From Candidatus Heimdallarchaeota archaeon (GTDB lineage: Archaea; Asgardarchaeota; Heimdallarchaeia; Heimdallarchaeales; Kariarchaeaceae), in the NCBI GenBank assembly GCA_015523565.1, contig WAKA01000117.1, positions 1-19,016 on the forward strand: a stretch of DNA of 19,016 nucleotides, written 5' to 3'. Below, piece by piece: positions 15,983 to 19,016 of the stretch. Position 1 is the stretch's first letter. Every line of letters begins with the position of its first letter. The translations under genes were made by a program, and so were the position numbers. Below the pieces are notes generated by a model. It ran no database searches and was not told where the DNA came from. It was given only the letters and a program-made list of their open reading frames with translations.

Positions 15983-16774
15983 ATGTCCGTAGAAGAGAAA
16001 AAAATAGATGTCTACTCTGGTGCTGTCTTGGATCGCAAAAAGAAAATTCGTATCCAAAGAGGGTCTCCAGAAACAGGTATTGAAATGGTTGAATATGACG
16101 TAGAGTATGACCACACTGAAGTTGTTCTAGACATCGTCCACCGTGTTCAAGCAGAATTTGCTCCTGATTTGGCAGTCCGCTGGAATTGCAAGGCTGGAAA
16201 GTGTGGTTCTTGCTCAGCCGAAATCAATGGCATGCCAAAACTAATGTGCATGACCAAGATGATCGATTATGATGACGTAGATGTTCTTGAAATACGTCCC
16301 ATGAGAACTTTTCCAGTTATCAAAGACCTTGTAACTGATGTAAGCTGGAATTTCGAAGTGAATAAACGAATTAAACCATTTAAGCCCCCTGAAGGACTTA
16401 AAGAACTAACCATGCAACAGAAACATGTTGATAGGGTACAAGAATATAGGAAATGCATCGAATGCTTCCTATGCCAAAATACCTGTCATGTACTTAGAAC
16501 ACATCAAAAGACCAATGAATTTGCTGGTCCACGCTTCATGATTAGATTGGCATCATTGGAAATGCATCCAATGGATACCGAAGAAAACCGTCTGAAAGAA
16601 ATCAAGGACGACTTTGGTGTCATGATGTGCAATATCACTCGATGTTGTACTGAAGTATGCCCTGAAGAAATCAACATAACTGACAATGGTATTATCCCAT
16701 TAAAGGAAAGAGTAATTGGCGAGTTCTATGACCCATTGGCAAAAGCAATCTCATGGGTCAAAAAATTACTTTAA
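15983..16774 (+). CDS. sdhB: Succinate dehydrogenase/fumarate reductase iron-sulfur subunit
   Basis: Cluster motifs CKAGKCGSC...C, CIECFLCQNTC and CNITRCCTEVCP. SD GGAGG at 15971-15975. Confidence 0.96.
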   Translation: MSVEEKKIDVYSGAVLDRKKKIRIQRGSPETGIEMVEYDVEYDHTEVVLDIVHRVQAEFAPDLAVRWNCKAGKCGSCSAEINGMPKLMCMTKMIDYDDVDVLEIRPMRTFPVIKDLVTDVSWNFEVNKRIKPFKPPEGLKELTMQQKHVDRVQEYRKCIECFLCQNTCHVLRTHQKTNEFAGPRFMIRLASLEMHPMDTEENRLKEIKDDFGVMMCNITRCCTEVCPEEINITDNGIIPLKERVIGEFYDPLAKAISWVKKLL

Positions 16775-18621
16775 TTTGACAATCTTCGGTTCAAAAATTC
16801 TGTAAATAATTTCATTGATCTAATTCTTCCCTTTATATCACTCATTGCTCCATGTCCCTCATCTGTATATTCTACAAACTCAAAATCTCCATCTGGACCT
16901 TCTTTTCTTCCAAGTTTCAATAATCTGTCTCTGACATTTCGTGATTCTGTAACTGGACATCGTGGATCATTTGTTCCATGTACCAAAAGCAATGGCGCCT
17001 TTATGTTCTCCACATAATTCAAGGGTGACCTTTCTTCCCACAGCTCTGCATCTTCCACTGGATCACCCATTTGCATTCTCAAGAAATACTTGAAATGTGG
17101 CATTGACTTTTCATACATGTTCTTCAGATGTGATACTGGAACCCAAGCACATCCTGCTGCCCACAAATCTGGTGATTTGGTTAAACAAACTAAAGTTGCA
17201 TATCCTCCATAACTTCCACCAAATACTGCAACTCGGTTTGGATCCACACTATAGTTGTCTATGATATATTGCCTTCCTGCAACCCAATCATCATGATCTT
17301 TGCCACCCCAATCTTTCAAACATGCATCCCTGAATTCCACTCCATATCCTGTACTCCCTCTTACATTTGGTAGTAACACTACATACCCCAAATCTGCCAA
17401 ATATTGTGCCATCATGCTGAAGTTAAGGAAGTACTGTCCTGTAGGTCCCCCATGCGGAAGAACAATTGCAGGATACTTAAATGTTGGATCAAAATCCCTC
17501 GGTTTATAGAGAATCGCAGGAATCATTGTTCCATCTAAACTAGGATACCAGATGTGCTCCCCATTCACAAATAATGAGGGATCAATTCCTTTCGTATCTG
17601 TATTCAATAATGTTTCATAATTTTCTGTTTCCAAATCATACATTATCAATTTTGAAGGCATCGTAGGGGTGTTAATTGTCAAAAACAAGTACCTGTCATC
17701 CTTCAATTGGGAACCTGCCGCTATTCCCTTTGGAAAGTTCAATTGCCTTGATTTTCCTGTTTCAATGTCAAAGATGACTGGTGAAATCGACCCATCGACA
17801 TTTTGCATTGCCACCAAAAATTTACCATTGTCACTGAATTTAGCGGCATATTGCTCATGTTTGCCATCACCAAGAATTCTAATTTCTTTTGTTTCAACAT
17901 TGTAAATCCCTGGCTGGGCAACCCCACTTGCATCTGTTGTAAAGGCAATGAATTTACCATCCTTTGACCAATCTGCAAATGAATCATTGCTTCCAATTTT
18001 CATCTGGATTATTCGCTTGGTTTCTGTCCCATCTACTTTTGCAATATAAATGTCTGAATTTCTGAGATCTTTCTCCTCGTTCGTCCCATAAACTACATAT
18101 TCTCCATCTGGTGAAAATTTTCCGCCAAATGCAGGATTTTCATGTGCCGTGATCTGTTCAACAGTTTCTCCGTCGGTTGAAATCCTGAAAACATTCATTT
18201 GCCCATTCCTGTTGCTCGTGATGGAATACCATTTGCCATCTGGGGATGAATCAACAATGTATTCCTGAAATTCTGGAGTATCTGTCAACATTGTAACTTC
18301 GCTTGTCTCAATATCTATACTGTGGATATTGTGCTGTTCATCTCCGTCTTTATCCTTGGCGAACAAGATGCTTTTATCATCCCTAGCCCAAATAAATCCT
18401 GCCCTTAGGGTCTTTGGAACCTCTCCATGCGAAATCTGTTTAATTTCTTTTGTCGCTAGATCCATAATATATAACTCAATCCTTCCTGTTTTATCCCAAT
18501 AAAATGCTAGCTTGTCTTTTGCATGATTAAGAGTGGGCATATAGAAACTTGGCATCGATGCCAATGTCTCTAGATCAAAATTGCCTTTTTCCTTAATTGG
18601 AGCCAACTTCTGTGCTTCCAT
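16771..18621 (-). CDS. S9-family serine peptidase (acylaminoacyl/dipeptidyl aminopeptidase-like)
   Basis: N-terminal beta-propeller repeats (SPDG, SKDG), HGGP, NVRGSTGYG, nucleophile GGSYGG, Asp in NDPRC, His in DEGHG. Confidence 0.93.
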   Translation of the reverse strand: MEAQKLAPIKEKGNFDLETLASMPSFYMPTLNHAKDKLAFYWDKTGRIELYIMDLATKEIKQISHGEVPKTLRAGFIWARDDKSILFAKDKDGDEQHNIHSIDIETSEVTMLTDTPEFQEYIVDSSPDGKWYSITSNRNGQMNVFRISTDGETVEQITAHENPAFGGKFSPDGEYVVYGTNEEKDLRNSDIYIAKVDGTETKRIIQMKIGSNDSFADWSKDGKFIAFTTDASGVAQPGIYNVETKEIRILGDGKHEQYAAKFSDNGKFLVAMQNVDGSISPVIFDIETGKSRQLNFPKGIAAGSQLKDDRYLFLTINTPTMPSKLIMYDLETENYETLLNTDTKGIDPSLFVNGEHIWYPSLDGTMIPAILYKPRDFDPTFKYPAIVLPHGGPTGQYFLNFSMMAQYLADLGYVVLLPNVRGSTGYGVEFRDACLKDWGGKDHDDWVAGRQYIIDNYSVDPNRVAVFGGSYGGYATLVCLTKSPDLWAAGCAWVPVSHLKNMYEKSMPHFKYFLRMQMGDPVEDAELWEERSPLNYVENIKAPLLLVHGTNDPRCPVTESRNVRDRLLKLGRKEGPDGDFEFVEYTDEGHGAMSDIKGRIRSMKLFTEFLNRRLSN

Positions 18622-18691
18622 GTTTTTTAATCTACAATGCTAAAATAAATATTCGCCTATAGATTAAATCAATTTGAACATTCAAAATTGG

Positions 18692-18699
18692 TTTAATTA
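18692..18699 (+). promoter_or_regulatory. Putative TATA box for the metG leader transcript
   Basis: TTTAATTA preceded by a BRE-like CAAAATTGG, 25-32 nt upstream of ATG 18724. Confidence 0.4.
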
Positions 18700-18723
18700 T
18701 GCCTTAAATTGATCTGGCAAAAA

Positions 18724-18798
18724 ATGAAAATGTTTTTATGGATGAAATGGGATGCTAAGTTGGTGAAACCCATGGGGTATCGCGAAATGGCTTACTAA
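18724..18798 (+). CDS. Putative Met-rich leader peptide (uORF) of metG, MKMFLWMKWDAKLVKPMGYREMAY
   Basis: Hand translation gives 24 codons, 5 of them ATG (18724, 18730, 18742, 18772, 18787), with stop TAA at 18796-18798. Directly upstream of methionyl-tRNA synthetase. Translation is not demonstrated. Confidence 0.55.
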   Translation: MKMFLWMKWDAKLVKPMGYREMAY

Positions 18799-18899
18799 CA
18801 TTTATCTTTTCGACAGCCTGACCTATGGGTTTTCATTTGTTTTAAATTGTCAACCATTTCCAATTAGGGAACCAAAGGTTGAAATTTTTCAAATTTTTT
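18762..18899 (+). promoter_or_regulatory. Structured metG leader: two hairpins, each followed by a U-rich tract
   Basis: Stem 1: 18762-18776 pairs with 18822-18837 (15 bp, 3 G-U, 1 bulge), then TGTTTT. Stem 2: TCAACC 18850-18855 / GGTTGA 18877-18882 with inner TTCC/GGAA, then TTTTTCAAATTTTTT. Confidence 0.55.
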
Positions 18900-18908
18900 A
18901 TGAGGTGA

Positions 18909-19016
18909 ATGCTATTGACTGAAGAAAAATATATTGTAACAAGCGCCCTTCCATACATAAATGGAGTCAAGCACATTGGAAATTTAGTTGGTTCATTGTT
19001 GCCTGCAGACATATAT
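18909..19016 (+). CDS. metG: Methionyl-tRNA synthetase, N-terminal part (runs off the window)
   Basis: [36 protein letters not shown] contains TSALPY-N and the class I HIGH-type motif (HIGN) typical of MetRS. SD GAGGTGA at 18902-18908. The true start may be TTG 18915, which has better SD spacing. Confidence 0.93.

Follow-up and report, generated by a model that had tools for sequence, protein, structure and literature searches.

A conserved two-frame leader before metG and leuS in Heimdallarchaeia: a candidate hungry-codon frameshift sensor of tRNA charging

To our knowledge, archaea lack T-boxes and classical attenuators, and the matching of synthetase levels to tRNA charging in this domain is essentially unknown. 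The region upstream of metG, the gene for methionyl-tRNA synthetase (MetRS), in an Asgard (Heimdall) archaeon raises the question of whether a leader read by ribosomes could sense the supply of charged tRNA. An earlier note on this DNA had pointed to an upstream open reading frame (uORF) rich in Met codons and proposed that it controls metG in the manner of a bacterial leader peptide. The most far-reaching reading considered in this study, to which we assign a probability of about 0.55, is that Heimdall archaea control at least two synthetase genes, metG and leuS, through a +1 frameshift at a hungry cognate codon, with only the slipped ribosomes reaching the start of the gene.

The metG locus and its ATG-rich upstream frame

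The window, meaning the whole stretch of 19,016 nucleotides that was analysed, is an entire contig (C117) of a 3.57-Mb, 233-contig assembly (G000). The 5' end of metG lies at 18915-19016 on the + strand, where the gene is broken off by the contig end to resume on contig C123. A 287-nt intergenic region separates it from a divergent minus-strand ORF of 616 aa (16771-18621), which, by its C-terminal motifs, has the look of an S9 (prolyl oligopeptidase / dipeptidyl peptidase) serine peptidase. Strong Shine-Dalgarno (SD) sites precede metG in all genera, and since the site in the window (18902-18908, + strand) abuts ATG 18909 and close relatives start at TTG, the TTG at 18915 is more likely than ATG 18909 to be the start codon.

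The 24-codon uORF with five Met codons is present at 18724-18798 as previously described, ending 110 nt 5' of ATG 18909, and so are the eight ATGs within 66 nt (18724, 18730, 18738, 18742, 18747, 18752, 18772 and 18787). Genome ATG frequency predicts 1.4 ATGs in such a stretch, and only 41 loci on both strands of the 3.57-Mb assembly hold eight or more in 66 nt; the enrichment is therefore unusual. However, it is not a feature that relatives have kept, as the homologous 66 nt in 63 of them contain one to four ATGs (median two). Conservation of the uORF among relatives is confined to its last third, from approximately 18762 onward. The first 13 codons (18724-18761, + strand), which carry six of the eight ATGs and to which the earlier note had given a role, lie outside the conserved element and are not conserved even within the genus. 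They overlap a predicted TATA-like box (18733-18739, + strand), approximately 26 nt downstream of which the conserved element begins, and in every group of relatives an A/T-rich box precedes the purine-rich 5' end by about the same distance (~26 nt). The metG transcript is predicted from this arrangement to start near 18762, in which case the first 13 codons would be promoter.

In members of the same genus, a DNA search recovered a 30-nt block ahead of metG that lies within the conserved last third of the uORF. Searching 47 genomes of the order with a degenerate pattern of this core gave 10 matches, compared to none for the reversed control, and seven of the 10 stand 130-330 nt before metG. 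With a shorter, class-level pattern, 20 of the 22 genomes of genus g14 proved to contain a single copy, in all cases preceding a second type of MetRS. After 600 nt upstream of metG were taken from all other genomes and the core was relaxed, 63 usable instances were obtained. Overall, 63 of 83 Heimdallarchaeia genomes, belonging to 12 genera and six families, carry the conserved core ahead of metG, and it occurs before both types of MetRS. Chance, in the form of a functionless ATG-rich intergenic stretch, would account for an ATG richness that is private to this genome; conservation over 12 genera with controls, together with the parallel before leuS described below, makes it extremely improbable as an explanation of the leader.

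The two MetRS types found in Heimdallarchaeia are a bacterial-like enzyme (families f1, f4, f6 and f7), which is approximately 50% identical to alphaproteobacterial and actinobacterial MetRS, and another type (families f2, f3 and f5), which is approximately 38% identical to the bacterial-like one. Since the two-frame leader stands before both, it is either older than the enzyme replacement or has moved independently of it. The leader was not found in the metG upstream regions of family f7. In that family, metG has instead a conserved leader of ~75 nt behind an A/T box (L152-L162), in which a U-rich run and an A-rich one might pair immediately upstream of the SD site, possibly as another form of control.

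Two overlapping reading frames and their conservation

The conserved part of the leader contains a short frame-0 uORF (18763-18798, + strand), which runs for 11 codons from GTG 18763, or alternatively begins at ATG 18772, and ends at TAA 18796-18798. The SD-like GGTGA at 18762-18766 (+ strand), correctly reported as lying upstream of ATG 18772, contains GTG 18763 and coincides with the predicted 5' end of the transcript, and its purine block is conserved in all genera. Numbered from the invariant Met codon discussed below, frame 0 starts at -24 (GTG) or -15 (ATG or GTG), with either a good SD site or a leaderless position; the GTG at -24 is seen in genera g1, g9, g10, g11 and g7. The frame closes two to 12 codons after the Met codon (median five) in 63 of 63 genomes, such that, as in prfB, the uORF ends soon after the proposed shift site.

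This Met codon (18787-18789, + strand), the proposed hungry A-site codon, is ATG in 64 of 64 sequences. Directly before it stands GAA (18784-18786, + strand), the proposed P-site slip codon that would be read as AAA after a +1 shift; the triplet is C/G-A-A in 61 of 64 sequences and U-U-U in two, and the two bases before the Met codon are A in 62 of 64. Farther upstream, an SD-like block that is G-rich and then A-U (18774-18780, + strand) is the proposed frameshift stimulator, with positions -13 and -11 to -7 kept in 57-64 of 64 sequences. By sequence position, it ends 3 nt 5' of the proposed P-site codon (-3 to -1), the prfB-type spacing. The 16S 3' tail of three relatives has the usual anti-SD sequence, to which the slip-site block is complementary only in part. 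None of the 64 sequences has A directly after the Met codon, where it would create UGA in the +1 frame. The interval, common to all genomes, in which a ribosome would have to cross from frame 0 to +1 extends from -11 to +8 around the Met codon. Two features depart from the classical models: the A-site codon is a sense codon (Met, or Leu in the leuS leaders) rather than the stop codon of prfB, and in place of the run of cognate codons expected of an attenuator there is one conserved Met codon, the others being private to this genome.

Overlapping this uORF, a start-less +1 frame, overlooked in the earlier note, stays open as far as metG. In the window it occupies 18767-18922 (+ strand), opening after TGA 18764-18766 and running for 51 sense codons, none of them ATG, GTG or TTG, to TGA 18920-18922, which lies 5 nt after TTG 18915. 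Median open lengths over the 63 genomes are 58 codons for the +1 frame and 16 for frame +2. Summed over 60 leaders, the stops between the ATG and the metG ribosome-binding site number 297, 17 and 226 in frames 0, +1 and +2, respectively, and the +1 frame is open throughout in 47 of the 60, whereas dinucleotide shuffles give a mean open probability of 0.06. The other thirteen leaders have a +1-frame stop before the metG site, part of these resulting from misplaced starts and part being real. Relative to the metG start, the stop that finally ends the +1 frame stands at -4, +1 or +5 in the majority of genomes, and in 50 of 60 it falls between -30 and +26; it thus mostly overlaps or abuts the downstream start, as in translational coupling. 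The relation of the +1 frame to the frame of metG itself varies (48, 8 and 5 of 61). In a few genomes (L187, L194, L174 and L185, corresponding to G028, G036, G043 and G012), the +1 frame is broken 25-170 nt before metG, which may reflect sequencing errors in metagenome-assembled genomes, degeneration of the device or run-on over a shorter distance.

Substitutions in the +1 frame show no codon-position periodicity (0.52/0.53/0.50 at the three positions in g14 and 0.42/0.41/0.45 in g11), which indicates that the openness of the frame, rather than its peptide, has been selected. The +1 frame does not encode a fused functional protein as in prfB; its unconserved peptide terminates where metG begins. 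These observations bear on the possibility that the +1 frame is an ordinary small gene coupled to metG, starting at GTG or at a near-cognate AUC, AUU or AUA two codons before a lysine codon, with the conserved core (Gly-Ile-x-Lys-Trp/Cys) as its N-terminus. Variation in the core falls mostly at third positions of +1 codons, AUN is found at -8 in most genomes with GTG or ATG nearby in the others, and a canonical +1-frame start (GTG or ATG) upstream of the Met codon, at which direct initiation is possible, exists in 28 of 63 genomes. However, in the remaining 35 genomes, including all 20 of g14, the +1 frame contains no ATG, GTG or TTG ahead of the Met codon and is closed by a stop a short way upstream; the rest of the peptide bears no sign of purifying selection, and the G-rich block lies immediately next to the AUN codon, a spacing ill suited to initiation. 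A small gene would also leave unexplained both the invariant Met codon in the other frame and the Leu codons before leuS, and we regard it as rather unlikely.

The leader has in addition a predicted hairpin, whose 5' arm (18763-18776, + strand) covers the uORF start region and whose 3' arm (18822-18836, + strand) lies inside the +1 frame. Its predicted folding energy is -20.2 kcal/mol (z = -2.4). The two arms vary together between genera, with compensatory changes, and each element's own 3' arm pairs with the 5' arm far better than do the arms of other genera in g1, g9, g14 and f6, but not in family f2. In a model-guided alignment of 26 sequences, from which the pair counts were taken with a covariance model built on genus g14, 79% of hairpin cells are paired, compared to 72% in shuffles (0 of 500 reaching 79%) and 40-53% with the partners slid, and eight of the 15 pairs have double-sided changes. 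The g14 model matched elements of g9, f6 and one g1 genome, and gave no match of useful E-value in the window; the long helix was not recovered by RNAalifold from a plain MAFFT alignment. Taken together, the comparisons show a real helix in some members of the class, although other features of the leader are more conserved.

A structured RNA operator or riboswitch, with MetRS, tRNA-Met, methionine or SAM as its ligand and with the short frames overlapping by chance, would be in keeping with this hairpin and its compensatory changes between genera, as well as with the conserved unpaired core and the leader position. Rfam cmscan of 18400-19016 at E up to 10, however, returned only chance-level matches to unrelated families and no T-box, the frames account for the letters that are most strongly conserved, leuS uses the same block with a different cognate codon, and reading-frame openness is a signature of translation; an operator of this kind is thus quite improbable. 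A tRNA scan of the region found nothing, and C/D-box, H/ACA, K-turn, tRNA-mimic and T-box-like readings were dropped because the candidate boxes, picked out by eye, were not conserved.

The hairpin also bears on a classical leader peptide, in which a ribosome paused at the single Met codon would alter leader folding or transcription termination without any frameshift. The conserved uORF with its cognate codon is what such a peptide requires, the covariation-supported hairpin joins the region of the uORF start to sequence 35-60 nt farther on, and runs of four or more Ts follow the uORF stop in most leaders. Nevertheless, no terminator-like hairpin was found in the leader, the conserved hairpin encloses the uORF rather than following it, and the hairpin of family f2 is no better than shuffles, yet f2 keeps the two frames. 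Stalling also leaves unexplained why only the +1 frame is kept free of stops up to metG, across indels and near-saturated divergence, and why its stop falls on the metG start. We consider stalling without a frameshift unlikely, and the bacterial-type attenuation previously suggested for metG finds no support in the leader.

A parallel leader before leuS

If the conserved Met codon is there to be sensed, other synthetase genes might carry their own cognate codons in the same position. The 15 synthetase genes of this genome were located by Pfam and their upstream regions inspected, and the leader of leuS (L200 252-408; contig C99, 18826-18982) was found to share the layout. Its uORF (L200 252-287) has the same G-rich block, then 3 nt, GUU and the Leu codon CUA (273-275). 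A start-less +1 frame of 50 codons (L200 256-405) ends with a stop at 406-408, 5 nt after the leuS TTG at 401. After leuS upstream regions were fetched from 40 further genomes, the two-frame layout was seen in at least 28 of the 41 in all, spread over all seven families, including f7, which is without the metG device. It consists of a start, N-G-G, N-A-U, three bases, GUU (once UUU) and a Leu codon, often with a second Leu codon next to it, and the +1 frame is open for 30-100 codons to the leuS start. The two anticodon positions that can re-pair once GUU + C has slipped by +1 are the same as for GAA + A in the metG leader.

The Leu codon itself varies among CUU, CUA and CUC. Met before metG, and Leu with synonymous variation before leuS, tie the device to the cognate amino acid, and the Leu codon at this position means that the invariant ATG of the metG leaders is not merely a start codon. 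A tiny ORF starting at the invariant ATG was ruled out on the same ground, and a -1 shift from the third frame or reinitiation after the uORF stop was rejected, as no conserved start or slippery pattern was present. The parallel leuS leaders make the sensing of cognate charged tRNA the most economical reading. We conclude that a conserved two-frame, cognate-codon leader architecture very likely exists before metG, as judged from sequence comparison. The idea of a cognate-codon leader that senses tRNA charging is thereby supported in part: a conserved translatable frame with a Met codon and a parallel before leuS agree with it, and attenuation and Met-richness are not supported, so that the principle of the earlier note appears to be right and its anatomy wrong.

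A proposed frameshift mechanism and related systems

On the preferred reading, a hungry-codon +1 frameshift, the metG mRNA would begin near 18762 with the short frame-0 uORF. Five to nine codons in, the ribosome would hold GAA in its P site and the Met codon in its A site, with the SD-like block 3 nt behind the P-site codon. When Met-tRNA(Met) is plentiful, the Met codon would be read and translation would stop three codons later, at 18796-18798. When it is scarce, the A site would remain empty, the ribosome would pause, and the P-site tRNA could slip by +1 (GAA to AAA), after which translation would continue in the +1 frame through the entire leader to the stop overlapping the metG start. The ribosomes may then be passed to metG by termination-reinitiation, and/or the pyrimidine-rich leader with its T-runs, when covered by ribosomes, may escape premature transcription termination. 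The net effect would be a rise in MetRS output when its product runs short.

A prfB-like +1 frameshift at the hungry cognate codon, delivering ribosomes to the synthetase gene, seems to us reasonably probable. We infer that the shift occurs, that it responds to tRNA charging and that translation of the +1 frame increases metG expression. Several points count against the frameshift: the slipped P-site tRNA would re-pair at two of three positions only, the SD-like block matches the 16S tail imperfectly, 28 of 63 genomes offer a start in the +1 frame upstream of the Met codon, thirteen leaders have a +1-frame stop before the metG site, family f7 is without the metG leader, and twelve other synthetase genes of this genome showed no clear counterpart. 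A third form of output, in which ribosome transit unmasks the metG ribosome-binding site, was discarded; the site is strong and is predicted to be slightly more accessible than with shuffled leaders (0.43 unpaired compared to 0.385), i.e., not more occluded, and unmasking is therefore unlikely.

The proposed device can be compared to several known systems. In prfB, an SD-like block stands 3 nt before CUU-UGA. The proposed metG device is similar in having a short frame-0 ORF, an SD-like block 3 nt before the P-site codon and a shift in the +1 direction, and in that slow A-site decoding would report the level of the gene's own product or direct output. It differs in that the A-site codon of prfB is a stop read by release factor 2 (RF2), while here it would be a sense codon, decoded by the very tRNA that the downstream enzyme charges. 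In addition, the +1 frame of prfB yields the RF2 fusion, while here it encodes an unconserved peptide, with the enzyme in a separate ORF at the +1 end; finally, prfB is bacterial and the present leaders are archaeal. In hungry-codon slippage, a shortage of the charged tRNA for a codon leaves the A site vacant there, which lets the P-site tRNA slip by +1. Such frameshifting, like that of yeast Ty1 (CUU-AGG-C), shares with the metG proposal the scarce charged tRNA, the vacant A site and the +1 slip. The bacterial hungry-codon shift, however, is a starvation error and Ty1 is a set-ratio device, and neither is linked to the synthetase that serves the hungry codon.

The metG leader also resembles the attenuation systems of pheM-pheST, trpL and hisL, where cognate codons in a short leader ORF report the supply of charged tRNA. 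Those systems rely on runs of cognate codons, stalling and a terminator/antiterminator, whereas here there is one codon, no terminator hairpin and a second open frame. T-box riboswitches likewise sense tRNA charging before synthetase genes, with a leader codon specifying the amino acid; unlike the present leader, which has no Rfam match, they bind tRNA directly, without ribosomes.

Regulatory frameshifts of such logic are known, among them the autoregulatory +1 frameshift of bacterial prfB (release factor 2) (PMC5009743). The nearest cases cited in the same review are the ermC leader and pheL, and in the ermC leader a ketolide-induced frameshift lets ribosomes run into the spacer, activating ermC (PMC5009743). 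As proposed for metG, the frameshift in the ermC leader ORF serves only to carry ribosomes onward and so switches on the downstream gene. There, however, the trigger is a drug-bound ribosome, the direction is -1, and the ribosome-binding site is unmasked, an effect that folding predictions do not support here. A 2021 review of archaea lists a single programmed frameshift in the entire domain, a -1 case (PMC8211752). No description of a tRNA-charging sensor of the proposed kind was found in literature searches covering Asgard riboswitches, synthetase frameshifts, MetRS uORFs and archaeal autoregulatory frameshifts.

If correct, the proposal would represent a sensor of tRNA charging that works through the ribosome and differs from attenuation, T-boxes and Gcn2, as well as the first regulatory frameshift in Archaea, located in the closest prokaryotic relatives of eukaryotes. 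A device in which the speed of decoding at one cognate codon decides the reading frame would embody a new principle of sensing, assembled from known parts (the geometry of prfB, hungry-codon slippage and leader-ORF coupling). For annotation, it would serve as a warning that archaeal 'untranslated leaders' can be read in two frames.

The device also provides a sequence signature for finding more such leaders. Screening this assembly for the layout yielded 168 loose and six strict matches, among which leuS is the sole synthetase gene; metG itself is truncated at the contig end. The suggestion that cognate-codon uORFs might precede other synthetase genes as well was borne out for leuS but not for twelve others of this genome, including proS and thrS, before which a search that was not exhaustive revealed no clear equivalent. 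Two further uORFs were noted before synthetase genes. On contig C17, a 41-codon, ATG-started uORF lies before a class IIb synthetase gene, with its TGA overlapping the ATG of the gene and no cognate-codon motif seen in it. On contig C151, a uORF of 16 codons lies ~250 nt ahead of the gene for a class Ib synthetase (Trp or Tyr). This uORF has two Trp codons, separated by one codon, directly before its stop and a +1 frame that falls short of the gene, and it might be a different kind of Trp-sensing leader or the product of chance.
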